Source: Antedon mediterranea
Taxonomy: Eukaryota; Animalia; Echinodermata
Assembly: GCF_964355755.1 (NCBI RefSeq)
Contig: NC_092676.1
Location: 22,462,871-22,526,870, forward strand
DNA: 64,000 bases
Reading direction: 5' to 3'
The notes below the pieces were generated by a model, which worked only from the letters and a program-made list of their open reading frames with translations, ran no database searches and was not told the origin of the DNA. A program made the position numbers and the translations under genes. Positions 14,509 to 41,000 of the stretch are shown in pieces (the stretch's first letter is position 1; each line of letters opens with the position of its first letter).

Positions 14509-14519
14509 AGTTACAATAA

Positions 14520-15270: not shown

Positions 15271-18200
15271 TTTTGCTTTACTAGATGGAGTCCTGTTGTC
15301 AAAAAAACATACAAATATATGTTTTACTAATCTAAATAAATTTCATGTGTGAACATACTGTTATATATTAATGGTAAAGTTTTGATGAATGAAATAAATC
15401 ACATGTAAAACAAACCTTGTTGTTGTTTGCTTTGTTTTTGTTGGTAATATTACAGATGTTCCAGAATCTGGAACCTTCTTTGTAGCTGTTTTACGTATCC
15501 TCCTGCAAAAACAGTATTTGTACACATTAAAGCTAATGTCACAAAAACGAAATGTGGTGAGGTTATAAACATACTATTATAGGGAGTTTTAGATTTGCAA
15601 TGACTATTGTATCTCATGTTAATTCATTGTGCACATGTTGGGATATTGGGACGTGTTTCCTCGCACTCCACCTCGACACAGTTTTGATGGTTTCAGGGTC
15701 CAAGCGATGACCGACTGTCCAAGTTGCCAGTCGTCTCAAATCAAAAGGTTGATGTTCTAATTTCTCTAGAGGGCCTTCTCCTATATTTATGTACATGCGC
15801 ATACAAGTTTTTGTATATTATGTGATGACTCTAGCTTTGAACAAACCGACAAGATAGTCACCTTCTCGATGAACTTTGGATAGTAGTGAGTTCATCGTCA
15901 TCATCGTCCAACAAGAGAGAATCATTCTCCACCATATCAACTTTTAGCTTTTTTGTCTTCTGTTTTAATTCCACATCCTGAAAAAAGAAGAATAAAATAT
16001 GGAAGAACAGAAATAATTATAAGAGCCATCCCATGCATACACATTTGATAGACAATGCAGTGCAAAACAGGAAACAAATATAATGCTTTAAGAGTACTGT
16101 ATCTGTTACTAGTAAAGCTTGAGATGCAATGCACTAGGATGCAATGCAAGGACGCAAGTGACGTGATGGATCATCCAAACTGCCGCTTGAATGTGATGGT
16201 TCAACTCACTTACATTGTGCCTGTCGTGTTGCATTCTGGTGCGACCAAGCTTAAAGATACCTGCCTCAGGGAGGTTTTCAAATGTAGTTTTAAACCTTCT
16301 CAGGACCATTCAGTCAGTTTGATACACCATTGCGATGTGGCCAAATATGGTAGTGATAACATCATTGTGTCCATACTGTATACGGGCACATCCCATTTGA
16401 TCAAGTTTGATAGTGTAGACAGAGCTTAATAGCTGAATTTTGTACAACAAACTCTTTGTCTCTTATATTAACGATATACATATACTGTATATACTTATTT
16501 CAATTTGTAACTACAAATGCAGCATAAAATATTTTAAATGAGTCGTTTAATTTTTTACAGGCTCAAAATTTAAGTGCAAATTAGGATTTGTTTGTTAAAA
16601 CATACCCTTAATCTAAATTCATCGTCTGTGCTAATTTCTTCTTTGTCTTCATGATCACTAATATCTACCTCCATTGTGGTTTGATCCGTCTTCTGTTGTT
16701 GATTTCTCTCTCTTTTATTTTCAGAGTCCTTCACTTTAATAAAATATCTTAATATGAACCTCCATGTTTGTTTGTAATCAACAAATTAATTTTGTTGTTA
16801 TGGTATAACGGATATTTATTATAAAATTTGGGAAATTTGAATATTTAAATGCTAATTTGTTTTTGAGTCTTCTTTAAAGAACTTAGTACATCTTTCGAGA
16901 CGAGTAGGGGGGGGGGGGGGTTACCCACACACACAGCCACTGATCATAGCTGGGCCCCCTGGGAGAACAGTCTTTGACTGAAGAGCCTAATAATAATAAT
17001 TGATGTGATTTTCCATTGAAAAAAAACCCCCAATATATTGAACTTTAAAACCAAAGAGGTCATTAGTATGAAATATTTTAGAAATTACATTTAATACAAT
17101 TATATTACAGAAAATATTTTAATTATGCTTATTTTTAAGGCCTGGTTGTTGCTCCTAATAAAATTCATTGCAAACCATGAAAACCCAAAAAACAATGAAA
17201 ATGGTCGTGGAAAAGAGATCCAGATGACCAATCATAACCTAGTCTCATTTTAAACTTGTATTTATGCAAGGTCACATGGAAAACATTTGTGTCACGCTGT
17301 TCTATGAAACAGAACAGAGATGCGAATGCTTTCAGGACTATCCGCCTATAAAATACAATGAAACAACGGCGATCAGTGACTTACAGTTTTCTCGCAGCTG
17401 TCTTATTTTAGCTTTCTTGTCATTCACGATAACTTGAAACTTAAAAGAAAACAAAAAATGTTTTAGAAAAATTGAAGAACTTATAATTTGTATTGAATTT
17501 CATGAATAGAAATTTTAATATATATTTAATATGATAAATGTCTTCTTTCTTGTCTATTAAGTGTTGATAGATATGTTACATTAACAACCCTTTGTCTGCT
17601 CCAATTTCTGAAATCAAAAGCTCCAGGCCCTTATCAAAATATTTTAAAGATGTATTGTCCCCTAAATCATGAAAAATAAAGATTTATAAATCAGACTTTG
17701 GATAGGCCATTTTGCAGTTTTAATGAAGTTTTTTTATACTAAAGAAAAAAGAAATGATTTCACTTACGAAAAGACAGAATAAACAGTAAAATTTAACTAA
17801 AAACAATTTTCTAACTATTTTAACTATTTTTGGCTTTAATTACACTTTATAATTTCTTTTAGCGATCCAATTATTCGGCAACGTGAATAACAATATTTGA
17901 CATTAAAATGGCATAGTCAACAACAAATAATTGAAAAAAATATAATTTTTTCAGGGTGACAATATTTATTTTATTATAAAAGGTAAAGTAAATATACTGG
18001 CCATCATTTTACTTCTTTTATTTATTTATTTGTTCTTTACACTGGGTGACCGCTTCAGTAAAAAAAAACTGTTTAACCAGAGGGGTACACAAATCACAAT
18101 AAAAGTATTACAAAACAAATTTAAACTTACTTTAGAGTACAGGTCATTTTCTAAATCTATCTTAGCTGTTGAACACTGTTCAAGTAACTGCACTGCTTTT

Positions 18201-21200
18201 CTCCTTTCTCTCGACAAACGATCGTTTTCTTTTTCTAACGTACGTATACTGTCTTGCAGAATTTTCATTTGACTAATTGCAAAAGTGTACAACTCCTGAG
18301 TGGCTGTGCATGTATCATCAACAGCTGTAAGTTTGATTGAACCAAGTTGGTACTAAAAATAATATAATCATTTTCGTCGTCAGTAAACTACAGTAAAGTT
18401 GATTTAAAAAGTATATGGGAGGTTTTTCCTTCATTGAATTGCTACAATAGAGAGGACTGATAAATACAAGGAGAGAGATAAATAATAGTCTAGGGTTTTG
18501 TTGCTATTGTAAACACAATTAATACATGTGTCATGTGTAATCAGATTAGATTGCAATTTACACATGTAAATGAAAACAAATTTACCCAGCAACTTAAGGT
18601 TGTATTTCAATTTTCATGCATCTTTTCTGTATGGTCAAACTGCTCCTTATCTTGTGAATATTCAGCTATTGAGGTAGGTTTTAAACAGCAGTTTCATCTC
18701 AAATTTTAAAATCAGGGGAAGCCACACATGACCATTAAATGTGTAATTATAAAGTGCGAACATAATACCTTTATTCCACCTGCCATCACTTTTTTCCAAG
18801 AAAATACTTTATCCAAAACACTATCTTTAACCTAAATAGAAGAAAAGCTATTGAGTGCAATTATAACATTATACAGCACATGCATTATCACACCACATAG
18901 GCAGACGTACAGATAGTTATGAAAATTGTTAATTAAATTGCATCTGAAAAAGGCTTACATGAAGTTGGTGCAGTGATTTATAACTTTCAATGATAAAATA
19001 TTTTTAAATGCCTGATAATTCAGTATTGGTCGGGACATAACATCAAAAAGCAGGACAATCTAGCCAAAATCAAGATAAAAATAGTTGGAATCTATGCTTA
19101 ACTTCAATGACAACATTTGTTCCTTACGATAACAAAGACTGGTCTGGTAAAAAAGCTAAGTTTAAGTTTTTTAAGTATTGCTTAACTATCTTGATATTAT
19201 AAGATTGATAAATGCCATCCCATAGGAGAATTGACAGATATTAAATACATACATCATACTGAAATGCTATATGTTTGGTTTCCCTTTGAAACAAAGCACT
19301 CTGTGTTTGTGCTGTAAAATCAGCCAAATCCATCTTAACTTCTTCAGACAGGGTCTTTATGTCATTTTGAGACACTGTAAAAAAACACAATCAGAAATGT
19401 ATCAATTGCTTTAGAAATTGATTTCATATTTTGTTGTACTTCAATATTTCAATGGTACAGAATTTAATCCCATATTCTACAACTTTGACCCCTGTCTCTA
19501 GAATCTTAATCTGCAATGCAATACCTACTGTAGCCATAATAGTGACAGCTTCAAAGCACTCCTCAGGCCATAGTTCAGTCTTTTCGGATAAAGGACTTTT
19601 ACACTTTGCTTGTAGGGTGTAGTAGTGTGCGTCTAATAGTGTGTGTATACCCTTGTTGAACCCACAAATGTAAAAACGCCCACAAATGTGAAAACAACCA
19701 CAAATGTGAAAACGCATCACCCACAAATGTGAAAACAACCACAAATGTGAAAACGCATCACCCACAAATGTGAAAACAACCACAAATGTGAAAACGCATC
19801 AACCACAAATGTAATAAACAGCGCCCACAAATGTGAAAACGATCATCGCCCACAAATGTGATAACGCCCACAAATGTAAAAAAAAATGAGAATTTTTCGG
19901 CCACAAATGTAAAAAAAAAAAATCAGATGAAATTTAATGCTAGACTCAAACAATTTTGTAGTATCGTGTACGCGCCCAAAACATCGAATCGAGCATCGAC
20001 TTTGAACTATACGTACATAACAGTAAGCCAACGAGTTAATAACCACACACTACATACAAGTAGCAATTTAACCTTGACCTTGTTGTATCGTGTGCGCGAA
20101 AAAAAAATATCGAACATCGACTTATAACTATACGTACATAATAGTAAGCCAACAACCACACAGTAGAAGCAACAATGATATAACATGGCCTTGACCTTGA
20201 AGTATCGTGCACGCGCGCAGCAAATAACAAATATCGTCTTGAACTATTACGTTCATTAAACAAACGAGTTAACGCGCAAATATCGCGCGCACGAGCAGCA
20301 AATGATAATAATCCAACGTGTTAACGACGACCCTAACAGACGTATCGTGAACAAACAACTCAATACAATCATGATATAATGTTTGTCTGAATCTAGCATT
20401 AAATTTGATCTGATTTTTTTACATTTGTGGGCGAAAAAGTCACTCTTGTTTTTACATTTGTGGGCGTTATCACATTTGTGGGCGATGATCGTTTTCACAT
20501 TTGTGGGCGCTGTTTTCACATTTGTGGTTGATGCGTTTTCACATTTGTGGTTGTTTTCACATTTGTGGGTGATGCGTTTTCACATTTGTGGTTGTTTTCA
20601 CATTTGTGGGTGATGCGTTTTCACATTTGTGGTTGTTTTCACATTTGTGGGCGTTTTCACATTTGTGGGCGTTTTCACATTTGTGGGTTCAACAACCCTC
20701 CTCTACACTAATCTTAATTACAACAACAAAAAATGTCTTACAATGTCCTTTCCAGGCACTGTTCCCATCAGTCAAGGTCAGTGAAATTCTATTCTCATTT
20801 TCACTCTTGCCATCTTGTCCTGCTAAAAGGTAGTATTGTTGATTACCAACATCAAAATTCCTGATCACATTCTCCTCAAATTTGAAAAAAAAAAATAAAA
20901 AAAATTCTTATTTAGGCCTAATAAAAATTACTGTAAAATGTTCTTAAAAGATTGGCCTACATAACTATGAAAGACTGCACCGCGGAAAAACGGTGGTGAC
21001 AAACATTTTTTCTCCATGGATTTTAAGCAGTGAAAACAATCTTTTTCAATCACACAGTTATATAGGCCAATCTTTTTAAAGCAAATTTTACAGAAATTGT
21101 TTTTCTCATACGGCCCTCCATTCAGAAGGTATGATTATTTAATTAGCAAGTCGTCCTGAAATTCCTTGAAAACGATTAGGCTTAGTTACTGTATGTAGCC

Positions 21201-22576
21201 TAGCTAGGCCAGGACGAATATGTTCTTTTTTTTGCGACTGTTTGTCATCTGCAAGGTCACAGTGCATTTCGGCCGCCAATCATTTCGGCCGCCGGTTATG
21301 GAACGCCCAAATTCATGAAACTCCAAAAAGGACAAAATATGGCATGATCATTTCGGCCGCCAGGTATGGCGCGCCAAATTGAAATAGCCAGAAATAACTC
21401 ATTAACTGTACAGTATTACAGTGAAAAAAAATAACTTTATCAAATCTATGGAACGCCACAGAGAACTATGGTCATTTAAACTAGAGATCAGTTGTGCAAT
21501 GGGCTAAATACATTTTGTTTTTGCCGTAGGCATAGATTTAAAGTTATATTAGTTACGGTATTTTACCGTTTGAATATTTTGGTCCAAATGAATATTGATT
21601 TAATGTTTATTTTTTTATTTATTTTACAAGTCCCGAAGATGTGTGTGCTTTGGAAAAATGTGTTTTTTTTAATATGAATCAAGTTAAGTGTTTTTGACTG
21701 GCACATAAAAAAAACTTCAGCATCACCTCCTTCTTATTAAAAAAATATCATTAATATTCACTGTAGTGATGGCAATGTGCACACTATAAAATCGCTGCTG
21801 TTTCTGGAATTGAAGACCGCCGATTCGGCTTAATAATACAGTATTTAGGCCTAGTAAAATATTAACATTTTAACACACATGGCGTGTCATACATATTCAA
21901 GAATAATTACAATTCTGGTGGCCGAAATTAACAATACATATTTTGTCCTTTTTGGCGTTTCATGAATTTGGCAATTCCATAACCGGCGGCCGAAATGACT
22001 GGCGGCCAAAATGATCAGACACCATCTGCAAGATGGTTTCCGTAAAACAAAAATCGTCTATCTATTAATTACTAGATTAGGCCAGGGATTTTTTCTCTCA
22101 GCGCTTTAGGACAATCTTTTGATTGTAACTAAAGCGCTATATAAATCGAACAACATCACATTATTATAAGCTACAGTATACAGTTTATAGCCTCTAGGCA
22201 GGGAGTTGTTATTAATATTAGTCTAATAACAACTCCCTGCTCTAGGCCTACAATTACATATATAATAATATTATAGGGCGCCGTTTATAAGCATCGCATA
22301 GACTAGTACTACAAGGGCCTAGGCCTAGTTAGGCTAGAGTAGGCTAGGCCTAGTACTAGCCTAGGCCTAGTAGTAGTAGGCATACTAATCGGTGAACCCA
22401 CCACACTAGCCTCTAGGGCTAGGCTAGGTAGGCCGGACCTACTACTAGTACTAGCTAGGCTAAAGTAGTAGGCGGTCTGGAGCCGATTTGACCCTATTTA
22501 TTAGTACTGTCTCTTTACAGGAAATTCAGTAATCTCTACCAAATAAACATTTTCATCGTTTTTTTAAACATACCAT
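15190..22576 (-). CDS. XRCC4: DNA repair protein XRCC4 (~343 aa)
   Basis: Exons 22576-22574 (ATG only), 20874-20742, 19374-19253, 18831-18769, 18352-18131, 17439-17385, 16733-16606, 15977-15862, 15502-15416, 15292-15190. Total 1032 nt, phases consistent. Motifs LTLTDGNSAWKG, YQLGSIKL, EKENDRL, LENDLYSKFQVIVNDKKAKIRQL (Ligase IV-binding coil) and C-terminal DDLLSEL. Confidence 0.92.
16874..17000 (+). mobile_element. SINE-like 3' fragment with (TAA)n tail
   Basis: tacatctttcgagac...ggggttac also occurs at ~46880-46910. Ends in taataataat. Confidence 0.45.
19654..20694. mobile_element. Non-autonomous foldback-type DNA transposon with TGT...ACA ends (Ginger-like)
   Basis: 5-bp TSD ACCCT (19649-19653 and 20695-20699). 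~300-bp TIRs built of cacaaatgtgaaaac tandem subunits. Lies in an XRCC4 intron. Confidence 0.85.
20931..21093. mobile_element. Small decayed inverted-repeat element (MITE-like)
   Basis: ctgtaaaat...aaaagattggcctacataact is inverted to agttatataggccaatctttt...attttacag. Confidence 0.55.
21255..22023. mobile_element. Non-autonomous TIR element (MULE-like)
   Basis: ~85-bp TIRs with catttcggccgcc subrepeats. Direct repeat atctgcaa (8 bp; up to 10 bp depending on end assignment) on both sides. Confidence 0.8.
22198..22240. repeat. Short palindrome, gcagggagttgttatta...taataacaactccctgc
   Basis: 17-bp perfect arms. Confidence 0.75.
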
Positions 22577-22782
22577 TCTTTCGACTGGGTAGTTTTGCCG
22601 TTTTCTAAACTTTCTCACCTAAACCTCGATCGTAGCTTGTGTCAAGCTAGCCAACAATAAGCCAGCCAACAATAAGCCAGCCCACTTTTATTTTTTCCAG
22701 CCAACAATAACTATGAAACGCCGTTTGTGCATTCTTTACATTTTCATTGTTACTTATGGCTTTTATGGTATTAGGAATTAAA

Positions 22783-25700
22783 TATTTGTGAGAAAAACGG
22801 CAGATTGTTCCTGGGATTCACTTGGTGGGATTATACTAGGGTACCCCCTTAGTCGTCCAGTATAAGTTAGAGTGGGACCACTGGTCCCGTTTACTCAGCC
22901 CTCATCTTTAAAATTTGAGTGTAACTCAATTATGATTTTTAAAATATAGTTAAATTTGAAACTGTATTTGTGAGAAAATGGCGGATTGTTCCTGGGAGTC
23001 ACTTGGTGGGATTATACTAGGGTACCCCCTTAGTCGTCCAGTATAAGTTAGAGTGCGACCACTGGTCCCGTTTACTCAGCCCTCATCTTTAAAATTTGAG
23101 TGTAACTCAATTACAATTTTTAAAATATAGTTAAATTTGAAACTGTATTGGTGAGAAAATGGCGGATTGTTCCTGAGAGTCACTTGGTGGGATTATACTA
23201 GGGTGCCTCCTAAGTCGTACAGGATAAGTTAGAGTGGGACCACTGGTACAGTTTACTCAGCCCTCATCTTTTAAATTTGAGTGTAACTCATTTACGATTT
23301 AAAAAATATAGTGAAATTTGATACTGTATTTGTGAAAAAATGGCGGATTGTTCCTGGGAGTCACTTGGTGGGATTATACTAGGGTACCTCCTTAGTTGTC
23401 CAGTATAAGTTAGAGTGGGACCACTGGTCCCGTTTACTCAGCCCTCATCTTTAAAATTTGAGTGTAACTCATTTACGATTTTAAAAATATAGTGAAATTT
23501 GATACTGTATTTGTGAGAAAACGGCGGATTGTTCCTGAGAGTCATTTGGTGGGATTATACTAGGGTACCCCCTTAGTCGTCCAGTATAAGTTAAAGTGGG
23601 ACCACTGGTCCCGTTTACTCTAAGCCCTCATCTTTTAAATTTGAGTGTAACTCATTTACGATTTTTAAAATATAGTGAAATTTGATACTGTATTTGTGAG
23701 AAAACGGCGGATTGTTTCTGGGAGTCACATGGTGGGATTATACTAGGGTACGTCATTAGTCGTCCAGTATAAGTTAGAGTGCGACCACTGGTCCCGTTTA
23801 CTCAGCCCTCATCTTTTAAATTTGAGTGTAACTCAATTACGATAAAAATTTTAAAATATAGTGAAATTTGATACTGTATTTGTGAGAAAACGGCGGATTG
23901 TTCCTGAAAGTCATTTGGTGGGATTATACTAGGGTATCCCCTTAGTCGTCCAGTATAAGTTAAAGTGGGACCACTGGTCCCGTTTACTCTAAGCCCTCAT
24001 CTTTTAAATTTGAGTGTAACTCATTTACGATTTTAAAAATATAGTGAAATTTGATACTGTATTTGTGAGAAAACGGCGGATTGTTTCTGGGAGTCACATG
24101 GTGGGATTATACTAGGGTACGTCATTAGTCGTCCAGTATAAGTTAGAGTGCGACCACTGGTCCCGTTTACTCAGCCCTCATCTTTTAAATTTGAGTGTAA
24201 CTCAATTACGATAAAAATTTTAAAATATAGTGAAAATTGATACTGTATTTGTGAGAAAATGGCGGATTGTTCCTGGGAGTCACTTGGTGGGATTGTACTA
24301 GGGTACCTCCTTAGTCGTCCAGTATAAGTTAGAGTGGGACCACTGGCCTCGTTTACTAAACCGTCATCTCTTAAATTTGAGTGTAACTCAATTACGATTA
24401 ATATTTTAAAATATAGTGAAATTTGATACTGTATTTGTGAGAAAATGGCGGATTGTTCCTGGGAGTCACTTGGTGGGATTGTACTAGGGTACCTCCTTAG
24501 TCGTCCAGTATAAGTTAGAGTGGGACCACTGGCCTCGTTTACTAAACCGTCATCTCTTAAATTTGAGTGTAACTCAATTACGATTAATATTTTAAAATAT
24601 AGTGAAATTTGATACTGTATTTGTAAGAAAATGGCGGATTGTTCCTGGGAGTCACTTGGTGGGATTATACTAGGGAACCTCCATATCCGTCCACTATAAG
24701 TTAGAGTGGGACCACTGGTCCCGTTTACTCAGCCCTCATCTTTTAAATTTGAGTGTAACTCAATTACGATAACATTTTTAAAATATAGTGAAAATTGATA
24801 CTGTATTTGTGAGAAAATGGCGGATTGTTCCTGGGAGTCACTTGGTGGGATTATACTAGGGTACGTCCTTAGTCGTCCAGTATAAGTTAGAGTGCGACCA
24901 CTGGTTCCGTTTACTCAGCCCTCATCTTTAAAGTTTTTTAGTGTAACTCAATTACGATTAATATTTTAAAATATAGTGAAATTTGATACTGTATTTGTGA
25001 GAAAACGGCGGATTGTTCCTGGGAGTCAGTTGGTGGGATTATACTAGGGTACCTCCTTAGTCGTCCAGTATTAGTTAGAGTGGGACCACTGGTCCGGTTT
25101 ACTCAGCCCTCATCTTTAAAATTTGAGTGTAACTCATTTACGATTTTTAAAATATAGTGAAATTTGATACTGTATTTGTGAGAAAATGGCGGATTGTTCC
25201 TTGGAGTCACTTGGTGGGATTATACTAGGGTACCCCCTTAGTCGTCCAGTATAAGTTATAGTGGGACCACTGGTCCCGTTTACTAAGCCCTCATCTTTAA
25301 AATTTGAATGTAACTCATTTACGATTTTTAAAATATAGTGAAATTTGAAACTGTATTTGTGAGAAAACGGCGGATTGTTCCTGAGAGTCACTTGGTGGGA
25401 TTATACTAGGGTACACCGTACCCTTAGTCGTCCAGTATAAGTTATAGTGGGACCACTGGTCCCGTTTACTAAGCCCTCATCTTTAAAATTTGAGTGTAAC
25501 TCATTTACGATTTTTAAAAATATAGTGAAATTTGATACTGTATTTGTGAGAAAATGGCGGATTGTTCCTGGGAGTCACTTTGTGGGATTATACTAGGGTA
25601 CCTTCTTAGTTGTCCAGTATAAGTTAGAGTGGGACCACTGGTCCCGTTTACTCAGCCCTCATCTTTAAAATTTGAGTGTAACTCATTTACGATTTTTAAA

Positions 25701-28700
25701 ATATAGTGAAATTTGATACTGTATTTGTGAGAAAACGGCGGATTGTTCCTTAGAGTCACTTGGTGGGATTATACTAGGGTACCCCCTTAGTCGTCCAGTA
25801 TAAGTTAGAGTGGGACCACTGGTCCCGTTTACTCAGCCCTCATCTTTTAAATTTGAGTGTAACTCATTTACGATTTTTAAAATATAGTAAAATTTGATAC
25901 TGTATTTGTGAGAAAACGGCGGATTGTTCCTGAGAGTCACTTGGTGGCATTATACTAGGGTGCCTCCTTAGTCGTCCAGTATAAGTTAGAGTGGGACCAC
26001 TGTCCCGTTTACTCAGCCCTCATCTTTTAAATTTGAGTGTAACTCATTTACGATTTTAAAAATATAGAGAAATTAGATACTGTATTTGTGAGAAAACGGC
26101 GGATTTTTCCTGGGAGTCACATGGTGGGATTATACTAAGGTACGTCCTTAGTCGTCCAGTATAAGTTAGAGTGCGACCACTGGTTCCGTTTACTCAGCCC
26201 TCATCTTTTAAATTTGAGTGTAACTCAATTACGATAAAAAAAATTAAAATATAGTGAAAATTGATACTGTATTTGTGAGAAAATGGCGGATTGTTCCTGG
26301 GAGTCACTTTGTGGGATTATACTAGGGTACCTCCTTAGTCGTCCAGTATTAGTTAGAGTGGGACCACTGGTCCGGTTTACTCAGCCCTCATCTTTAAAAT
26401 TTGAGTGTAACTCATTTACGATTTTTAAAATATAGTGAAATTTGATACTGTATTTGTGAGAAAATGGCGGATTGTTCCTTGGAGTCACTTGGTGGTATTA
26501 TACTAGGGTACCCCCTTAGTTGTCCAGTATAAGTTAGAGTGGGACCACTTGTCCCGTTTACTCAGCCCTCATCTTTAAAATTTGAGTGTAACTCATTTAC
26601 GATTTTTAAATTATAGTGAAATTTGAAACTGTATTTGTGAGAAAACGGCGGATTGTTCCTGAGAGTCACTTGGTGGGATTATACTAGGGTACACCGTACC
26701 CTTAGTCGTCCAGTATAAGTTATAGTGGGACCACTGGTCCCGTTTACTAAGCCCTCATCTTTAAAATTTGAGTGTAACTCATTTACGATTTTTAAAAATA
26801 TAGTGAAATTTGATACTGTATTTGTGAGAAAATGGCGGATTGTTCCTGGGAGTCACTTTGTGGGATTATACTAGGGTACCTTCTTAGTTGTCCAGTATAA
26901 GTTAGAGTGGGACCACTGGTCCCGTTTACTCAGCCCTCATCTTTAAAATTTGAGTGTAACTCATTTACGATTTTTAAAATATAGTGAAATTTGATACTGT
27001 ATTTGTGAGAAAACGGCGTATTGTTCCTTAGAGTCACTTGGTGGGATTATACTAGGGTACCCCCTTAGTCGTCCAGTGTAAGTTAGAGTGGGACCACTGG
27101 TCCCGTTTACTCAGCCCTCATCTTTTAAATTTGAGTGTAACTCATTTACGATTTTTAAAATATAGTAAAATTTGATACTGTATTTGTGAGAAAACGGCGG
27201 ATTGTTCCTGAGAGTCACTTGGTGGGATTATACTAGGGTGCCTCCTTAGTCGTCCAGTAGAAGTTAGAGTGGGACCACTGGTCCCGTTTACTCAGCCCTC
27301 ATCTTTTAAATTTGAGTGTAACTCATTTACGATTTTAAAAATATAGAGAAATTAGATACTGTATTTGTGAGAAAACGGCGGATTTTTCCTGGGAGTCACA
27401 TGGTGGGATTATACTAAGGTACGTCCTTAGTCGTCCAGTATAAGTTAGAGTGCGACCACTGGTTCCGTTTACTCAGCCCTCATCTTTTAAATTTGAGTGT
27501 AACTCAATTACGATAAAAAAATTTAAAATATAGTGAAAATTGATACTGTATTTGTGAGAAAATGGCGGATTGTTCCTGGGAGTCACTTGGTGGGATTATA
27601 CTAGGGTACCTCCTTAGTTGTCCAGTAGAAGTTAGAGTGGGACCACTGGTCCCGTTTACTCAGCCCTCATCTTTAACGTTTGAGTGTAACTCAATTACGA
27701 TTAATATTTTAAAATATAGTGAAATTTGATACTGTATTTGTGAGAAAATGGCGGATTGTTCCCGGGAGTCACTTGGTGTGATTATACTAGGGTAACTTCT
27801 TAGTTGTCCAGTTTAAGTTAGAGTGGGACCACTGGTCCCGTTTACTCAGCCCTTATCTTTAAAATTTGAGTGTAACTCAATTACGATTAATATTTTAAAA
27901 TATAGTGAAATTTGATACTGTATTTGTGAGAAAATGGTGGATTGTTCCTGGCAGTCACTTGGTGGGATTATACTAGGGTACCCCCTTAGTCGTCCAGTAT
28001 AAGTTAGAGTGGGACCACTGGTCCGGTTTACTCAGCCCTCATCTTTAAAATTTGAGTGTAACTCATTTACGATTTTAAAAATATAGTGAAATTTGATACT
28101 GTATTTGTGAGAAAATGGCGGATTGTTCCTGGGAGTCACTTGGTGGGATTATACTTGGGTACCCACTTAGTCGTCCAGTATAAGTTAGAGTGGGACCACT
28201 GGACCCGTTTACTCAGCCCTCATCTTTTAAATTTGAGTGTAACTCAATTACGATAAAAAAATTTAAAATATAGTGAAAATTGATACTGTATTTGTGAGAA
28301 AATGGCGGATTGTTCCTGGGAGTCACTTGGTGGGATTATACTAGGGTACCTCCTTAGTTGTCCAGTAGAAGTTAGAGTGGGACCACTGGTCCCGTTTACT
28401 CAGCCCTCATCTTTAACGTTTGAGTGTAACTCAATTACGATTAATATTTTAAAATATAGTGAAATTTGATACTGTATTTGTGAGAAAATGGCGGATTGTT
28501 CCCGGGAGTCACTTGGTGTGATTATACTAGGGTACCTTCTTAGTTGTCCAGTTTAAGTTAGAGTGGGACCACTGGTCCCGTTTACTCAGCCCTTATCTTT
28601 AAAATTTGAGTGTAACTCAATTACGATTAATATTTTAAAATATAGTGAAATTTGATACTGTATTTGTGAGAAAATGGCGGATTGTTCCTGGCAGTCACTT

Positions 28701-29378
28701 GGTGGGATTATACTAGGGTACCCCCTTAGTCGTCCAGTATAAGTTAGAGTGGGACCACTGGTCCGGTTTACTCAGCCCTCATCTTTAAAATTTGAGTGTA
28801 ACTCATTTACGATTTTAAAAATATAGTGAAATTTGATACTGTATTTGTGAGAAAATGGCGGATTGTTCCTGGGAGTCACTTGGTGGGATTATACTTGGGT
28901 ACCCACTTAGTCGTCCAGTATAAGTTAGAGTGGGACCACTGGTCCCGTTTACTCAGCCCTCATTTTTAAAATTTGAGTGTAACTCATTTACGATTTTTAA
29001 ATTATAGTGAAATTTGATACTGTATTTGTGAGAAAACGGCGGATTGTTTCTGGGAGTCACATGGTGGGATTATACTAGGGTACGTCATTAGTCGTCCAGT
29101 ATAAGTTAGAGTGCGACCACTGGTCCCGTTTACTCAGCCCTCATCTTTAAAATTTGAGTGTAACTCAATTATGATTTTTAAAATATAGTGAAATTTGAAA
29201 CTGTATTTGTGAAAAAACGGCGGATTGTTCCTGAGAGTCACTTGGTGGGATTGTACTAGGGTACCTCCTTGGTCGTCCAGTAAAAGTTAGAGTGGTACCA
29301 CTGGTTCCGTTTACTCAGCCCTCATCTTTTAAATTTGAGTGTAACTCATTTACGATTTTTAAAATATAGTGAAATTTG
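22783..29378 (+). repeat. ~181-bp satellite array, ~36 units, forward
   Basis: Unit starts tatttgtgagaaaatggcggattgttcc; first starts at 22783, 22965, 23146. Confidence 0.97.
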
Positions 29379-32300
29379 TACCAGTGGTCCCACTCTAAAC
29401 TATATTTTAAAAATCGTAAATGAGTTACACTCAAATTTTAAAGATGAGGGCTGAGTAAACGGAACCAGTGGTCCCACTCTAACTTCTACTGGACAACTAA
29501 GGAGGTACCCTAGTATAATTCCACCAAGTGACTCCAAGGAACAATCCGCCATTTTCTCACAAATACAGTATCAATTTTCACTATATTTTAAATTTTTTTA
29601 CCGTAATTGAGTTACACTCAAATTTAAAAGATGAGGGCTGAGTAAACGGAACCAGTGGTCGCACTCTAACTTATACTGGACGACTAAGGACGTACCTTAG
29701 TATAATGCCACCATTTGACTCCCAGGAACAATCCGCCGTTTTCTCACAAATACAGTATCAAAATTCACTATATTTTTAAAATCGTAAATGAGTTACACTC
29801 AAATTTTAAAGATGAGGGCTGAGTAAACGGGACCAGTGGTCCCACTCTAACTTATACTGGACAACTAAGGAGGTACCCTAGTATAATCCCACCAAGTGAC
29901 TCTCTGGAACAATCCGCCGTTTTCTCACAAATACAGTTTCAAATTTTACTATATTTTAAAAATCGTAAATGAGTTACACTCAAATTTTAAAGATGAGGGC
30001 TGAGTAAACGGGACCAGTGGTCCCACTCTAACTTATACTGCACAACTAAGGGGGTACCCTAGTATAATCCCACCAAGTGGCTCCCAGGAACAATCCGCCA
30101 TTTTCCCACAAATACAGTATCAAATTTCACTATATTTTAAAATATTAATCGTAAATGAGTTACACTCAAATTTTAAAGATAAGGGCTGAGTAAACGGGAC
30201 CAGTGGTCCCACTCTAACTTAAACTGGACCACTAAGGAGGTACCCTAGTATAATCCCACCAAGTGACTCTCGGGAACAATCCGCCATTTTCTCACAAATA
30301 CAGTATCAAATTTCACTATATTTTACAATATTAATCGTAATTGAGTTACACTCAAACGTTAAAGATGAGGGCTGAATAAACGGGACCAGTGGTCCCACTC
30401 TAACTTCTACTGGACAACTAAGGAGGTACCCTAGTATAATCCCACCAAGTGACTCCAAGGAACAATCCGCCATTTTCTCACAAATACAGTATCAATTTTC
30501 ACTATATTTTAAAATGTTTTACCGTAATTGAGTTACACTCAAATTTTAAAGATAAGGGCTGAGTAAACGGGACCAGTGGTCCCACTCTAACTTAAACTGG
30601 ACAACTAAGGAGGTACCCTAATATAATCCCACCGAGTGACTCTCGGGAACAATCCGCCATTTTCTCACAAATACAGTATCAAATTTCACTATATTTTAAA
30701 ATATTATTCGTAATTGAGTTACACTCAAACGTTAAAGATGATGGCTGAGAAAACGGGACCAGTGGTCCCACTCTAACTTCTACTGGACGACTAAGGACGT
30801 ACCTTAGTATAATGCCACCATGTGACTCCCAGGAACAATCCGCCGTTTTCTCACAAATACAGTATCAAATTTCACTATATTTTTAAAATCGTAAATGAGT
30901 TACACTCAAATTTTAAAGATGAGGGCTGAGTAAACGGGACCAGTGGTCCCACTCTAACTTATATTGGACGACTAAGGGGGTACCCTAGTATAATCCCACC
31001 AAGTGACTTTCAGGAACAATCCGCTGTTTTCTCACAAATACAGTATCAAATTTCACTATTTTTTAAAAATCGTAAATGAGTTACACTCAAATTTTAAAGA
31101 TGAGGGCTGAGTAAACGAGACCAGTGGTCCCACTCTAACTTATACTGGACAACTAAGGAGGTACCCTACTATAATCCCACCAAGTGACTCTCAGGAACAA
31201 TCCGCCGTTTTCTCACAAATACAGTTTCAAATTTTACTATATTTTAAAAATCGTAAATGAGTTACACTCAAATTTTAAAGATGAGGGCTGAGTAAACGGG
31301 ACCAGTGGTCCCACTCTAACTTATACTGCACAACTAAGGGCGTACCCTAGTATAATCCCACCAAGTGGCTCCCAGGAACAATCCGCCTTTTTCTCACAAA
31401 TACAGTATCAAATTTCACTATATTTTAAAATATTAATCGTAAATGAGTTACACTCAAATTTTAAAGATAAGGGCTGAGTAAACAGGACCAGTGGTCCCAC
31501 TCTAACTTAAACTGGACAACTAAGGAGGTACCCTAGTATAATCCCACCAAGTGACTCTCGGGAAAAATCCGCCATTTTCTCACAAATACAGTATCAAATT
31601 TCACTATATTTTAAAATATTAATCGTAATTGAGTTACACTCAAACGTTAAAGATGAGGGCTGAGTAAACGGAACCAGTGGTCGCATTCTAACTTATACTG
31701 GACGACTAAGGACGTACCTTAGTATAATGCCACCATGTGACTCCCAGGAACAATCCGCCGTTTTCTCACAAATACAGTATCAAATTTCACTATATTTTTA
31801 AAATCGTAAATGAGTTACACTCAAATTTTAAAGATGAGGGCTGAGTAAACGGGACCAGTGGTCCCACTCTAACTTATAATGCACAACTAAGGGGGTACCC
31901 TAGTATAATTTCACCAAGTGGCTCCCAGGAACAATCCGCCATTTTCTCACAAATACAGTATCAAATTTCACTATATTTTAAAATATTAATCGTAAATGAG
32001 TTACACTCAAATTTTAAAGATAAGGGCTGAGTAAACGGGACCAGTGGTCCCACTCTAACTTAAACTGGACAACTAAGGAGGTACCTTAGTATAATCCCAC
32101 CAAGTGACTCTCGGGAACAATCCGCCATTTTCTCACAAATACAGTATCAAATTTCACTTATTTTACAATATTAATCGTAATTGAGTTACACTCAAACGTT
32201 AAAGATGAGGGCTGAGTAAACGGGACCAGTGGTCCTACTCTAACTTCTACTGGACAACTAAGGAGGTACCCTAGTATAATCCCACCAAGTGACTCCAAGG

Positions 32301-35300
32301 AAAAATCCGCCATTTTCTCACAAATACAGTATCAATTTTCACTATATTTTAAAATGTTTTACCGTAATTGAGTTACACTCAAATTTTAAAGATAAGGGCT
32401 GAGTAAACGGGACCAGTGGTCCCACTCTAACTTAAACTGGACAACTAAGGAGGTACCCTAGTATAATCCCACCAAGTGACTCTCGGGAACAATCCGCCAT
32501 TTTCTCACAAATACAGTATCAAATTTCACTATATTTTAAAATATTAATCGTAATTGAGTTACACTCAAACGTTAAAGATGAGGGCTGAGTAAACGGGACC
32601 AGTGGTCCCACTCTAACTTCTACTGGACGACTAAGGACGTACCTTAGTATAATGCCACCATGTGACTCCCAGGAACAATCCGCCGTTTTCTCACAAATAC
32701 AGTATCAAATTTCACTATATTTTTAAAATCGTAAATGAGTTACACTCAAATTTTAAGGATGAGGGCTGAGTAAACGGGACCAGTGGTCCCACTCTAACTT
32801 ATACTGGACAACTAAGGAGGTACCCTAGTATAATCCCACCAAGTGACTCTCGGGAACAATCCGCCGTTTTCTCACAAATACAGTTTCAAATTTTACTATA
32901 TTTTAAAAATCGTAAATGAGTTACACTCAAATTTTAAAGATGGGGGCTGAGTAAACGGAACCAGTGGTCCCACTCTAACTTATACTGCACAACTAAGCGG
33001 GTACCCTAGTATAATCCCACCAAGTGGCTCCCAGGAACAATCTGCCATTTTCTCACAAATACAGTATCAAATTTCACTATATTTTAAAATATTAATCGTA
33101 AATGAGTTACACTCAAATTTAAAAGATGAGGGCTGAATAAACGGGACCAGTGGTCCCACTCTAACTTATACTGGACTACTAAGGAGTCACCCTAGTATAA
33201 TCCCACCAAGTGACTCTCAGGAACAATCCGCCGTTTTCTCACAAATACAGTATCAAATTTCACTATATTTTAAAAATCGTAAATGAGTTACACTCAAATG
33301 TTAAAGATGAGGGCTGAGTAAACGGGACTAGTGGTCCCACTCTAACTTATACTGGACAACTAAGGAGGTACCCTAGTATAATCCCACCAAGTGACTCCCA
33401 GGAACAATCCGCCATTTTCTCACAAATACAGTATCAAATTTCACTATATTTTAAAATATTAATCGTAATTGAGTTACACTCAAACGTTAAAGATGAGGGC
33501 TGAGTAAACGGGACCAGTGGTCCCACTCTAACTTCTACTGAACAACTAAGGAGGTACCTTAGTATAATCCCACCAAGTGAATCCAAGGAACAATCCGCCA
33601 TTTTCTCACAAATACAGTATCAATTTTCACTATATTTTAAAATTTTTTACAGTAATTGAGTTACACTCAAATTTAAAACATGAGGGCTGAGTAAACGGAA
33701 CCAGTGGTCGCACTCTAACTTATACTGGACGACTAAGGACGTACCTTAGTATAATGCCACCATGTGACTCCCAGGAACAATCCGCCGTTTTCTCACAAAT
33801 ACAGTATCAAATTTCACTATATTTTTAAAATCGTAAATGAGTTACACTCAAATTTTAAAGATGAGGGCTGAGTAAACGGGACCAGTGGTCCCACTCTAAC
33901 TTATACTGGACAACTAAGGAGGTACCCTAGTATAATCCCACCAAGTGACTCTCAGGAACAATCCACCGTTTTCTCACAAATACAGTTTCAAATTTTACTA
34001 TATTTTAAAAATCGTAAATGAGTTACACTCAAATTTTAAAGATGAGGGCTGAGTAAACGGGACCCGTGGTCCCACTCTAACTTATACTGCACAACTAAGG
34101 GGGTACCCTAGTATAATCTCACCAAGTGGCTCCCAGGAACAATCCGCCATTTTCTCACAAATACAGTATCAAATTTCACTATATTTTAAAATATTAATCG
34201 TAAATGAGTTACACTCAAATTTTAAAGATAAGGGCTGAGTAAACGGGACCAGTGGTCCCACTCTAACTTAAACTGGACAACTAAGGAGGTACCCTAGTAT
34301 AATCCCACCAAGTGACTCTCGGGAACAATCCGCCATTTTCTCACAAATACAGTATCAAATTTCACTATATTTTACAATATTAATCGTAATTGAGTTACAC
34401 TCAAACGTTAAAGATGAGGGCTGAGTAAACGGGACCAGTGGTCCTACTCTAACTTCTACTGGACAACTAAGGAGGTACCCTAGTATAATCCCACCAAGTG
34501 ACTCCAAGGAAAAATCCGCCATTTTCTCACAAATACAGTATCAATTTTCACTATATTTTAAAATGTTTTACCGTAATTGAGTTACACTCAAATTTTAAAG
34601 ATAAGGGCTGAGTAAACGGGACCAGTGGTCCCACTCTAACTTAAACTGGACAACTAAGGAGGTACCCTAGTATAATCCCACCAAGTGACTCTTGGGAACA
34701 ATCCGCCATTTTCTCACAAATACAGTATCAAATTTCACTATATTTTAAAATATTAATCGTAATTGAGTTACACTCAAATGTTAAAGATGAGGGCTGAGTA
34801 AACGGGACCAGTGGTCCCACTCTAACTTCTACTGTACGACTAAGGACGTACCTTAGTATAATGCCACCATGTGACTCCCAGGAACAATCCGCCGTTTTCT
34901 CACAAATACAGTATCAAATTTCACTATATTTTTAAAATCGTAAATGAGTTACACTCAAATTTTAAAGATGAGGGCTGAGTAAACGGGACCAGTGGTCCCA
35001 CTCTAACTTATACTGGACAACTAAGGAGGTACCCTAGTATAATCCCACCAAGTGACTCTCGGGAACAATCTGCCATTTTCTCACAAATACAGTATCAAAT
35101 TTCACTATATTTTAAAATATTAATCGTAATTGAGTTACCCTCAAACGTTAAAGATGAGGGCTGAGTAAACGGGACCAGTGGTCCCACTCTAACTTCTACT
35201 GGACAACTAAGGAGGTACCCTAGTATAATCCCACCAAGTGACTCCAAGGAAAAATCCGCCATTTTCTCACAAATAGGCCTACAGTATCAATTTTCACTAT

Positions 35301-36374
35301 ATTTTAAAATGTTTTACCGTAATTGAGTTACACTCAAATTTAAAAGATGAGGGCTGAGTAAACGGAACCAGTGGTCGCACTCTAACTTATACTGGACGAC
35401 TAAGGGCGTACCTTAGTATAATGCCACCATGTGACTCCCAGGAACAATCCGCCGTTTTCTCACAAATACAGTATCTATTTTCACTATATTTTTTAAATCG
35501 TAAATGAGTTACACTCAAATTTAAAAGATGAGGGCTGAGTAAACGGGACCAGTGGTCCCACTCTAACTTATACTGGACTACTAAGGAGGCACCCTAGTAT
35601 AATCCCACCAAGTGACTCTCAGGAACAATCCGCCGTTTTCTCACAAATACAATATCAAATTTCACTATATTTTAAAAATCGTAAATGAGTTACACTCAAA
35701 TGTTAAAGATGAGGGCTGAGTAAATGGGACCAGTGGTCCCACTCTAACTTATACTGGACAACTAAGGAGGTACCCTAGTATAATCCCACCAAGTGACTCC
35801 CAGGAACAATCCGCCATTTTCTCACAAATACAGTATCAAATTTCACTATATTTTTTAAATCGCAAATGAGTTACACTCAAATTTAAAAGATGAGGGCTGA
35901 GTAAATGGTACCAGTGGTCTCACTCTAACTTATAGTGTACGACTAAGGAGGTATCCTAGTATAATCCCACCAAGTGACTCCCAGGAACAATCCGCCATTT
36001 TCTCACCAATACAGTTTCAAATTTAACTATATTTTAAAAATTGTAATTGAGTTACACTCAAATTTTAAAGATGAGGGCTGAGTAAACGGGACCAGTGGTC
36101 GCACTCTAACTTATACTGGACGACTAAGGGGGTACCCTAGTATAATCCCACCAAGTGACTCCCAGGAACAATCCGCCATTTTCTCACAAATACAGTTTCA
36201 AATTTAACTATATTTTAAAAATTGTAATTGAGTTACACTCAAATTTTAAAGATGAGGGCTGAGTAAACGGGACCATTGGTCCCACTCTAACTTATACTGG
36301 ACGACTAAGGGGGTACCCTAGTATAATCCCACCTAGTGAATCCCAGGAACAATCCGCCGTTTTTCTCACAAATA
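29379..36374 (-). repeat. ~181-bp satellite array, ~38 units, reverse
   Basis: Reverse complement of the same unit. Confidence 0.97.
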
Positions 36375-37237
36375 TTTAATTCCTAATACCATAAAAGCCA
36401 TAAGTAACAATGAAAATGTAAAGAATGCACAAACGGCGTTTCATAGTTATTGTTGGCTGGAAAAAATAAAAGTGGGCTGGCTTATTGTTGGCTGGCTTAT
36501 TGTTGGCTAGCTTGACACAAGCTCGATCGTAGACGTGACACAACAACATACACACCGCCCCCGCCGAAAGGTTTTGAGAGGCAAGTACTTCTCTATAGAG
36601 CGCCATTTATGCCTTTAGAAATAGAAAGAAAGAAGGAATTGTAATATCTGTTCATATGTTATAAACAATGTGCTTCAGGTAGACTTAATTTGGAGCACAG
36701 TGAAATAAACAAATACAAAAACATTCAGAACTAATGTTTCTAGAATTAAAAAATATTTTTTATACTTGGTATAGGCCTATGTTCAATATTGGTTACTTCA
36801 TCCGTAATGCAACAGAAAAATAAGTCTTGATTTTAGTAATTTTGCGTTCGTTTAAAATGTATATTTATGATAGAACATACAATTCCAACACATTTTTTAA
36901 ACTTAATTTTTTATCATCATAAAATAATTTTCCTACACATTTGAAATGTGGTAGTATACGTTCAATAGGCCTAGGTTACTACACGTTCAATATGTTACTG
37001 ACATCATTCACATCGTTAACAGATGTTTTTTTATGATCGCTAAAGTTGTAAAAAAAATGTGTTGGAATTGTAAGTTAATTGTTCTTTTATAAGTCTTAGA
37101 CAAACGCAGGTTATTAAAATCACTATTTTTTCTTTTGCATTACGGATGGAGTAACCGATATTGAATTCATGTACTAAGTTTGAAATATTTTTGAATTCGA
37201 AGTATTTTTTCTCGAAGTTTTTATATGTTACTATTTC

Positions 37238-37662
37238 GTTGTGCTCCACTGGTGGCGCCAAATTGGATCCACTGGAGCACAGTGTGTTAACAAACCAAAA
37301 GATATTTTAATTAGCGACTTTATTTCAATTTTCACTGTGCTCGTGCCAACTTGGGTCCATTGTGAGCATATAAATATAAGCATACGAAAAAATATTGCAA
37401 TTTAGTGACTTATTCCTATTTTGTATCACTGTACTCCACTGGTGCTAAATTGGGTCCGCTGGAGCACAGTGTATTAACATACGAAAAATATATTAAAATT
37501 TAGTTACTTTATTTCTATGTTATTATCACTGTGCTCCACTAGCGCCAAATTGGATTCACTTGAGCATTGTGTATAACATACGAAAAGATATTAACATTTA
37601 GTGACTTTATTTCTATTTTTTATCACTGTGCTCCACACCGGTGCCAAATTGGGTCCACTGAA
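37238..37662. repeat. ~95-bp tandem repeat, ~5 copies, each with an internal hairpin
   Basis: cactgtgctccact...aaattgggtccactggagcacagtg recurs. Confidence 0.8.
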
Positions 37663-38045
37663 CCAGTTACCGTAGTAGGCTACTATTTCTATTTCAGAAG
37701 TTAATAAAGGCATAAATGGATGAATGACGTTCTGAATATACCTCACACAACACCTTGTTACTCAACCATAAAGATAGTATTAGTGATCTTTGATCTTTCG
37801 TCGTTGCTTTACAATTATTCTAGTAGGCCTATCGCCGGAGAGTGCAGCCCTTTGTCAATCAAATGACGTCACAATTTAGTATAGCGCGATTCGTGGACGT
37901 GACCGGTAATAAAAGTTTGTAGCCGGCCCGCACTACTTATTTCTGTTAGAACGGGGGTTAGAACAAACGTCAGTTCTGAGTTAGTTTGTTGTATCTTCTG
38001 TAAAGTTTTTGGATACTCTAAAAGTTGTCGGCAGAAACTTTACCA

Positions 38046-41000
38046 ATGGATTTCACATTAAACACGCAGGTATTAAGACTTTTACCAGCTGATATGTGCG
38101 ATGTTGATGTACTTGTAGTTGCTAGTAATCCACTGAGATGGAGGTTAGTATTGTCGGCCGAGTAGATTAAACAAATATTTCTTCTGCCTAAACCCAGCGG
38201 TGTTCTCTTCGTGAAGCATTTCTTAAAATTTAGTATAGTATAACAAGCTATTTATATCTCATTAAGTTTTTAGCAACGGCAATGTTTTGTAATTTGAATT
38301 GTAATTATAAAATTTAAATTTAGATAATATCGAGTCATAGTCATGCAATGGGTCATGACGGGTTAGCTACAGACCGTTAAACGCATTGTTGATGATTCAA
38401 TTGGCATGTGGGCCTACCTTCCTATCATCGGATATGATTTGTTAATGCCGGCGCCATCCATTTTTTAACATGTCACAACTTTATTTAAATTTAAATTTAT
38501 TTTTTAAATATAAATGGAACACTACAAAAAGACTTTGGCGTCATCCGACTAGAACGTATGTTATTATGAATTCATTTTGATCAGGCAATCCACTTTACAA
38601 CAATAGTTGAATAGTGGGGGATATTATAGTTATAGTTATAAATTTTGATAAGCGATTGTGAGCAAATTCGGTTTTATGATCGCATTCATTCACTTGACTC
38701 AATTACCACACAAAAAGTGTACAGTATCATTCCCAAATCGACTATTGTATGCCTACCATGTGTTTATTTGCAAAACCGATTTTTACAGAACTATATTTAC
38801 CGATTTAAACGAACTAATTTGCTCTGTATAAGCCAAAACTTAGACTGGAGGCCTTTGACAGTCCCGTACCGGAGTTCCTCCATCGGTTCGTTTCGGACTC
38901 GATCGACTCTCACGCAGCAACGCGAGTTTATCAAAATTATGGTGCGACGACAGTCAAAATGAATCGCACCCGCATCTGATACGCCAGTACTACAGTATTA
39001 CATTGTGTGATCGATTGATTACGTGACTGTTGCGTTATTACTTGGCAAAATTTGGCAAAAAGAATTTTGCCAAGTATAGTATTTACTTTGTTTGTATGTA
39101 CTAGAGGGTGAGCTCGCTTCGCTCGCTCCCCCTCTAGGAAGTGTAGACGATGGTTTTCGGAATGATAATGTTCTCCTTTTTATACGTTTTCTGTCGGTTA
39201 CCATTATTGAAAATGCTTGACATTCGTAAAACTAAACTACTTTGTTTCACAGTGTTTTAGATGATTAATAACATTTTAAAGTACAGTTTTTATTGTTTGG
39301 TAGGGCCCTTTGGGGAGGCGGAGGTCATTTGAGGGAGGTGCTTATTCGAGGGATATATGTTAAATTTTGTAGTTTTAATAATATGGTAACATTTATAATC
39401 AAATGAAATCCTCTAATAGATATGAAAAGTGCTAAAAAAGAATAACAAATGCTTGGTAAATAGTAGATAACAGTGCGGTGAATTCTACTACAAATAGTAC
39501 CGTATAATTGTGTTGTTATAAATATGTGGATGGACGTTTATTAGATAGTTGGGTTGGGGGGGGGGGGATTTATTATTCAAAGTGATGTTTTTAGAGAGGC
39601 GTTTATTCAAATGAATACCATCCTAATAATTATTAATACATTATTTAATTTAATCATCTTTTGAAACTAACTGCCGTGACAGAGTGGGCCCAAGAAAGAA
39701 GACATTATGGTACGGCTTGCAACATGGGCAGACATCTCGGTCCTAACGGGACACAGGAAGATAGCCTACAGTTATTCCTGCAAGCTTACTCAAAATAAAA
39801 CTCAGCTATCGGGATTTCACGCGAAAAATGTCTTATCATCAAATCTCCCTATGTAATTTTATAATACTATTCCCCACAATATATTCTGATTCTTTATGGC
39901 GTATATTTAATTTGATCTTTATTAATTTGCAGTATAATTCCTATTATTTAACTACTGTACACACGCGCCGCGGTATGTTTTAAAATAAACAAAAAACTGA
40001 AATGGCTATGATTAATGGCCTATATCTGATTTTTTTTTCGTCTTCCAAAGGGACACTGTATTGATTGATGGAAAGTGCCTGTTTCCAGTCACCTTTAGGG
40101 TCAAATCTATTATTTTAACTGCTCCCTTGTGTATAAAAGAGAGAAAATATTTGAAACCAGGTTTTTGCAAGGTGAACTTATCTTAAACCCGGAAATTACT
40201 TTGACCGGGAAGAATTGAAATTGAGATGAAAATCTAATGTTGAAATCATAAATTGTGTTAAAAAACTCTTTATAATATCTTCCTAAGATAGAAATATGGA
40301 ACAATAGCGTCGCCGTGAACACTAATGTTATCAAATCTACGTTTCGCGGTACATCTCAGATAGATAAGGTAGGTATCCAAGGCGGAGATTTGTACCGAAG
40401 TTTTTGCATTGTGCTCGCCTATGTCAGAATTAACCATAATTTATATATAGATGTATGTATGTTTGTATGTATGTTTCTTTCTTAGCACGATAGCGCCTAC
40501 AGTTTTCAAGTTATCGTTCTGAATTTTTGGGTGTAGATAGGTATATACTTTCAGACCATGCCTATTGAAAATCAACAAAATTGGTTTATTAATAACTTCA
40601 CAAATAACAAAAATGATATTATTTTCAGACCGGCTAGTGTTAAAAGATAGGAGACAATTTTCAAAAGCCGGTGAGCAGTTTTAAAGTAACACGTAAACTG
40701 AAATTACATTTTCTCGAGAACTACTTGTCCAAAAACCTCATTTTTGGACAAGAGGCAAGGGTTATAATTTGTGATTTGTAATTTGAAAACAAAATTTTAT
40801 TCAATGTACCGGCTTTTTCATACAAATAGTTAAAAAAAATCTATTTATCTATTAAATAGCACGCATTCTGTCTTCTTTTAACATGGACATATTCTTTGAT
40901 ATGGACCAAAACATTAGTCGACTGGTCAAGCGGTTAAGCTTACGACATGGGTTAAGGCAGAGGCGCCGCAAATCGGCACAGCTTCAAGACACTCCTCGAT

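Follow-up and report, generated by a model that had tools for sequence, protein, structure and literature searches.

A 14-kb satellite-armed foldback element inserted just upstream of the XRCC4 start codon in the crinoid Antedon mediterranea

Can a gene needed for DNA end-joining keep working when a transposon of almost 14 kb lies directly in front of its start codon? This question is raised by a stretch of 64,000 nucleotides from Antedon mediterranea (contig NC_092676.1, positions 22,462,871 to 22,526,870; hereafter the window), in which a foldback element separates XRCC4 from a methyltransferase-like gene. The original prediction for this locus held that the element had displaced the XRCC4 promoter. 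We lean, with slightly better than even confidence, towards a recent insertion into an open gene start that the gene tolerates, XRCC4 staying transcribed from its remaining leader or from the outer end of the element. Four of ten listed public runs, none of the ten being recorded as RNA, were compared with the window at two flanks only: X2 (possibly the source of the window) and X5 (from another sample and study) of organism A, and X6 and X9 of organism B. X5 (guessed to be RNA) and X9 (kind unrecorded) were treated as RNA-type, as their contigs match XRCC4 exon 2 and not the adjacent intron.

The foldback element occupies positions 22635-36522 (13,888 bp), has terminal inverted repeats with G...C ends and is flanked by an exact direct repeat, TCGATCGTA, at 22626-22634 and 36523-36531 (both plus strand); nine matching letters at both edges have a chance probability of about 1e-5. 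An insertion upstream of the XRCC4 ATG had been predicted, and these ends, the 9-bp duplication and two tandem arrays bear it out. The outer 167 bp of the left arm (22635-22801, plus strand), which contain a 15-bp unit repeated 2.6 times at 22644-22682, are identical to those of the right arm (36356-36522, minus strand; 0 differences, 95% bound 1.8%). Inwards, Tandem Repeats Finder delimits 181-bp arrays of 36.0 copies on the left (22783-29378, plus strand), with block duplications within the arm, and of 37.8 copies, inverted, on the right (29412-36374, minus strand). Between them lies a 28-bp spacer (29371-29398), partly an inverted scrap of the 181-bp unit and closed by a 40-bp perfect stem. 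No coding capacity was found within 22635-36522, where the longest ATG-started frame spans 55 amino acids. Long inverted arms made of domains with tandem repeats, unequal copy numbers, a non-coding middle and a target duplication are all features of the foldback class, as is membership of a dispersed multicopy family, here seen as other copies with other flanks. The 181-bp units also carry what we take, by consensus, to be a YY1-like site, AAAATGGCGG, 19 times in the left arm and 20 times in the right, always directed inward; a variant, AAAACGGCGG, occurs in 27 further copies within the units, and no such sites lie elsewhere in the window.

To judge from its sequence, the element is likely a non-autonomous Mutator-type transposon. 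This assignment draws solely on the 9-bp duplication, which falls within the 8-10 bp of Mutator elements and sets the end at 22635, since foldback structure has arisen repeatedly, in several superfamilies (PMC4079207, PMC3169594). Duplications of 7 or 11 bp are also formally possible, because the edge letters of the duplication read as an inverted repeat as well. With 7 bp the element would be of P/Galileo type with AGCTTG...CAAGCT ends and no Mutator derivative, leaving the effect on XRCC4 unchanged; the formal 7-bp fit, the palindromic core CGATCG and the combination of foldback structure with 7-bp duplications in Galileo (PMC2775673) agree with this. However, in four organism-B contigs that represent the ends of other copies, agreement with the window is lost just left of 22635, placing the break at 22635 and not at 22634 (one entry among the 24 of 558 listed), which favours the G...C ends and the 9-bp duplication. 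The 7-bp reading, CGATCGT, is moreover unlike the Galileo target GTAGTAC (PMC2775673), and we hold a P/Galileo origin to be very unlikely.

Where, then, does XRCC4 begin relative to this element? The gene was recognised on the minus strand by its coiled coil (Pfam XRCC4_CC, E 1e-8), its N-terminal head (E 3e-4) and its orthology to named XRCC4 proteins, and three RefSeq XRCC4 models of Antedon mediterranea match exons of the window. RefSeq model X1 (343 amino acids) starts with MENVIRNF and model X2 (342 amino acids) with MNVIRNF, whilst the third (284 amino acids) begins in exon 3. Coding exon 2 (20742-20874, minus strand) has a tandem acceptor, so that it starts at 20874 or 20871; the GAG-GAG sequence at 20871-20876 accounts for two XRCC4 forms that are one residue apart at position 2. 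The starts M-ENV and M-NV therefore point to an upstream exon with ATG as its last letters, spliced to one or the other acceptor. In the interval from exon 2 to the partner gene, ATG is directly followed by GT at three sites (22576, 36392 and 22025), and only 22576 yields both RefSeq starts with a strong donor: it matches GTAAGT at 5/6 positions, against 3/6 at 36392, and has no earlier in-frame methionine. The predicted ATG at 22576-22574 with its GTATGT donor is thus present, the element lying 58 bp upstream where about 60 bp had been claimed. That the true first exon might lie elsewhere had been named as a possible refutation; for the coding start this did not occur, 22576 being the best of the three. 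A start at 36392, in the right arm, is disfavoured, as its exon would begin MAFM and 0 of the 3 RefSeq proteins do; 22025 has a weak donor and is placed at the edge of an intron repeat. XRCC4 of hemichordates and amphioxus begins at the same place as the Antedon ATG exon.

The ATG exon (22574-22625, minus strand) carries the start codon at its 3' end, preceded by a 49-bp leader that reaches the target duplication. Eleven AGs in the leader are preceded by 6-12 pyrimidines in 20 letters, against 15, 15, 15 and 11 at four real acceptors; lacking a good acceptor, the ATG exon is likely the first exon of XRCC4. RNA-type XRCC4 contigs were found in X5 (994 nucleotides, depth 25.7) and X9 (997 nucleotides, depth 33), and both, although from two organisms and two studies, end at 20872. 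This is the branch point to be predicted if an exon ending in TG meets the GAG-GAG tandem acceptor; the shared stop is a weak hint, 7 of 96 donor-like sites predicting a branch at 20872. XRCC4 is spliced in Antedon mediterranea, as seen in a second sample of unspecified insertion genotype.

These data also bear on whether transcription starts to the right of the element, in an old repeat end or in the segment with a cAMP response element (CRE) described below, and splices across it into exon 2, from the donor in the right arm or from donors near 37742/37754, to give an extended MAFM... protein or the head-truncated protein of 284 amino acids. The right-arm site, ATG followed by GTATTA at 36392-36390 and directed into the element, is in frame with exon 2 and would likewise predict a branch at 20872; the RefSeq model of 284 amino acids does start in exon 3, and in plants transposons are known to be spliced out by way of terminal donors. 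Yet its donor is the weaker one (3/6 against 5/6) and the MAFM start is absent from all three RefSeq proteins, whilst the donors near 37742/37754 predict branches at 20874/20873 and not at 20872. Furthermore, the 20872 stop recurs in organism B, where this site apparently lacks the element, and a similarly truncated model in Anneissia japonica means that the form of 284 amino acids need not stem from the insertion. We consider such splicing decidedly unlikely.

Other repeats lie within XRCC4 itself. Intron 1 (20920-22250) is crowded with multicopy inverted-repeat elements (21265-21363/21915-22013, 20920-21104 and 22194-22245), and intron 2 (about 19650-20700) holds a small second foldback-like element with inverted arms of 41-bp units that match at 231/238 aligned letters. 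Downstream, at 14517-15292, the C-terminal coding sequence is repeated as tandem units of about 103 bp, so that the last residues occur in several partial copies.

Is the insertion recent, and is it carried on both chromosomes? X2 contigs at 22098-22663 and 36498-36870 cross both junctions unbroken, at depths of 308.7 and 278.2 (nearby single-copy sequence, 235-320). Because an empty allele should split these contigs, the X2 animal likely carries the insertion on both chromosomes. At the element end, summed depth relative to single copy is about 490-fold in X2 and about 440-fold in X6, a rough guide as it is summed; in both organisms, the foldback family probably has ends by the hundred. An X6 contig of 305 nucleotides aligns to 22469-22628 with 8 differences in 160 letters, after which its further 118 letters depart from the sequence of the element; the eight X6 pieces listed on the right flank do not include it. 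The intact duplication and the 0 differences across the outer 167 bp, compared with about 5% between the organisms, suggest that the insertion likely postdates their split and, from these letters, it is likely recent. No abundant RNA from the element end was evident in X5 (depth ratio to DNA 280-376, against 89-533 for other repeats), where transcription of a single locus among hundreds would not show.

The claim that the element displaced the XRCC4 promoter was followed into its right flank. There, the plus strand carries the partner gene, which is most like phosphoethanolamine N-methyltransferases (38046-47700) and was recognised by three exons (best PDB match E 4e-10), the PDB names being presumably those of plant, nematode and Plasmodium-type enzymes; repeated homology searches for one further methyltransferase exon found nothing. 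Its probable first coding exon is 38046-38069 (plus strand), with matching exons at 45655-47468. The ATG at 38046 was assigned by position and by an organism-B RNA-type contig that covers 37953-38069 and ends at the donor of the exon. With the element and one duplication removed, the XRCC4 and methyltransferase ATGs stand head-to-head 1,573 bp apart, which agrees with the predicted 1.6 kb; with an older element removed as well, 439 bp separate them.

This older element explains one of the two promoter-like motifs named in the prediction, both of which are present: a GC-box-like motif at 36555-36565 (plus strand), in the 54-bp stretch between the right duplication and the older element, and ctatagagcgccat at 36593-36606. 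Shuffled sequences contained them in 3/100 and 16/100 cases, counts that are post hoc, the patterns having been taken from the window itself. Bins across 36550-36659 are multicopy in all four runs, with summed depths, relative to single copy, of about 41- to 57-fold in X2 and 190- to 280-fold in X6; these bins are too coarse to tell the copy number of the GC box. Positions 36619-36771 align inverted to 37172-37331 (score 107; maximum 50 in 200 shuffles), 36603-36617 is a perfect inverted match of 37705-37719, and the letters of other copies past 37719 match 36586-36602 at 15/17. We therefore read 36586-37719 as the decayed remains of an older inverted-repeat element. It comprises 99-bp units, encloses another inverted-repeat element of 384 bp (36782-37165) and contains ctatagagcgccat in its left end. 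Transposon ends are able to serve as promoters, so the origin of ctatagagcgccat weakens the case for displacement without refuting it. Of the claim as made, displacement stays plausible, on sequence grounds, for the GC box, which in an empty allele would sit 82 bp from the XRCC4 ATG, and is weaker for ctatagagcgccat as part of an older transposon end.

Single-copy sequence resumes at about 37760, and RNA-type contigs of organism B extend over the methyltransferase leader from 37953 onwards. The mostly single-copy segment at 37720-38045, with TGACGTCA as a CRE at 37864-37871, is likely the methyltransferase promoter and leader, and was perhaps once shared with XRCC4 as a promoter. The older element had probably already pushed this CRE-containing segment about 1.1 kb away from XRCC4, and a compact two-way promoter may thus have been split twice, the foldback following the older element. 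The names GC box, YY1, CRE, TATA and initiator (Inr) are used for consensus patterns that we take to identify such sites. Relative to the window, an X2 contig carries two substitutions, a 3-bp deletion and a 6-bp insertion at 37736-37883; it likely represents the second haplotype of the methyltransferase promoter.

What does the insertion do to XRCC4? In the reading that we favour, a transposase acting in trans would place the foldback in open chromatin at the XRCC4 start, and such start-site targeting would resemble that of maize Mu. Without a good acceptor in the ATG exon, transcripts for full-length XRCC4 in a carrier would have to start in the 58-bp leader or in the outer arm. The effect on expression would be quantitative at most. 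Insertions of maize Mu and Drosophila P are most frequent within 50 bp of start sites; strong knockdown was caused by 0/4 Mu insertions in promoters and by 5/20 in the 5' untranslated region (UTR) (PMC7337890). Mu thus shares with the Antedon element a landing within about 50 bp of the start region, often with little effect on expression (PMC7337890). It belongs to a plant and its elements are small, and the crinoid comparison is drawn from one site.

Several observations weigh against this preference. Neither a TATA, CCAAT nor GC box directed toward XRCC4 was found in the outer arm, which is why we would guess at a weak, dispersed start in the leader or arm. None of the RNA examined comes from an animal known to carry the insertion, the genotype of the RNA sample being unspecified, and the listed RNA-type contigs of X5 and X9 leave 22450-22589 uncovered, the ATG exon included. 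This gap proves nothing in itself; a short first exon may be lost at a branch during assembly. The X2 junction contigs extend 29 and 25 letters into the element, short of a 31-letter bridging rule, and the loose ends listed are 24 of 558 and 24 of 244, which leaves an empty allele possible. The 305-nucleotide X6 contig ends its alignment 6 letters before the end of the target duplication, and is therefore no more than a candidate for an orthologous empty site. Maize Mu elements measure 1.4-5 kb, unlike a 14-kb satellite. No transposase was found, so that the placement in Mutator is, on present sequence, a structural assignment only.

Alternatively, the insertion might be a real knockdown, severing the first exon or core promoter from the GC box and other upstream signals and letting heterochromatin of the 14-kb satellite spread over the leader, so that lower XRCC4 would reduce end-joining in carriers. 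The insertion has indeed put about 14 kb, in place of 82 bp, between the GC box and the ATG, and the sequences on either side of the element are CpG-rich, with observed/expected ratios of 1.72 in the 58-bp leader and 1.33 in the 63 bp right of the element (window, 0.68; small samples). A YY1-like motif at 36601-36608 is directed toward XRCC4; as human YY1 motifs sit just downstream of start sites (PMC8384218), it may mean that transcription formerly began upstream of the target and that the insertion is inside the 5' UTR, the class in which 5/20 Mu insertions strongly reduced expression (PMC7337890). On the other hand, the contigs suggest that the sampled animal carries the insertion on both chromosomes, and the RefSeq models and the second sample contain spliced transcripts, their genotypes being unspecified. 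We regard knockdown as unlikely.

A bolder version of the tolerated insertion, to which we give very little credence, is that the satellite-armed 14-kb foldback is the working upstream region of XRCC4, fixed on both chromosomes and separating the gene from the promoter formerly shared with the methyltransferase gene, with its outer end or its 39 YY1-like sites setting start and level. Were this true, a break-prone transposon would govern the repair gene required for its own excision. More generally, if the insertion is common and alters XRCC4 output, a transposon would be linked to control of the pathway that heals transposon-made breaks; the site is a natural test, as XRCC4 start and level can be compared between alleles.

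Could the size of the element, or its inverted centre, be an assembly artefact produced by fold-back chimeric long reads? The centre is given by the assembly alone. The arms, however, are unlike in unit order and number, the distinct flanks share one duplication, and both junctions occur in contigs of a public run. Aligned to each other, the arms are identical at 6,323/6,706 columns (94%), with 35 internal gaps. Units at mirror positions differ by a mean of 12.1 changes, against 13.4 for any left-right pair, and the most similar unit lies in the same arm for 56/72 units, in the opposite arm for 10, with 6 ties. Together with block duplications inside the arms (e.g. L15-17/L22-24 and R8-12/R20-24), this suggests that each arm grew independently, which argues against chimeric reads; such an artefact is exceedingly improbable. 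The 181-bp arrays would have expanded by unequal exchange inside each arm, before the present insertion.

The element had also been called a breakage-prone palindrome. Its inverted structure is real, and as a single strand the centre is predicted to fold at -94.5 kcal/mol (z -27), with a stem of about 87 bp and 2 mismatches. "Palindrome" overstates the case and "breakage-prone" must be tempered, because the arms are only 94% identical, with 35 gaps and a 28-bp loop. In yeast, a spacer of 20 instead of 12 bp lowers recombination about 40-fold and divergence lowers it further, whilst single-stranded DNA abolishes this protection (PMC10164571). Foldbacks have been reported as a cause of rearrangements in flies (PMC2775673), and by analogy a breakage risk at the XRCC4 site is plausible.

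Taken together, these features assign the element to a known kind, the Mutator-like Foldback, as a new and very large member at a site that such elements favour. Its exact 20-letter end pattern has 0 matches in metagenome contigs, and a literature search that covered few subscription journals found no report of either a foldback in crinoids or a transposon at the promoter of XRCC4. By description, its anatomy is shared by the foldbacks TU of sea urchin, an echinoderm precedent, and FB of Drosophila. The outer repeats of TU measure 15 bp, and we know of no 181-bp inner arrays of 36-38 copies in TU or FB. Tetris of Drosophila virilis, likened here by description, likewise has no open reading frame, shows an outer non-repeated domain followed by tandem units of about 200 bp that can seed satellite DNA, and is tentatively assigned to Mutator with 8-10-bp duplications; its arms reach at most 1,735 bp and flank a middle domain, whereas those of the Antedon element measure 6.7-7.1 kb, are nearly all satellite and meet at the 28-bp centre (PMC4079207). 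The Mutator/Foldback element Tm1 of root-knot nematodes shares 9-bp duplications, a 13-15-bp tandem motif near its ends and unequal repeat numbers between arms that are about 93% identical, but it has asymmetric 7-bp ends, is far shorter and has a known transposase-bearing member (PMC3169594). Galileo and Kepler of Drosophila buzzatii share long, internally repetitive arms and are linked to inversions, and a title cited in the same paper reports neighbour silencing by transposon-induced antisense RNA; they differ in belonging to the P superfamily with 7-bp GTAGTAC targets, whereas the Antedon ends favour 9 bp (PMC2775673). The difference from known foldbacks is thus one of scale, with satellite arms of about 7 kb and almost no middle, and provides a clean, very large case, in a crinoid, of a mobile element with satellite arrays that have grown in each of its arms.

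Further features lie towards the ends of the window. An element of 6.5 kb at about 1276-7818 has inverted ends of at least 400 bp and an open frame of 1,171 amino acids (1732-5247, minus strand) without a Pfam match, which by its motifs resembles an Academ-type transposase; the ends of this element do not match those of the foldback. On the other side, the plus strand carries MFAP1 at 52960-57700 (E 1e-19) and the minus strand a RhoGAP fragment at 62792-63184 (E 2e-4).

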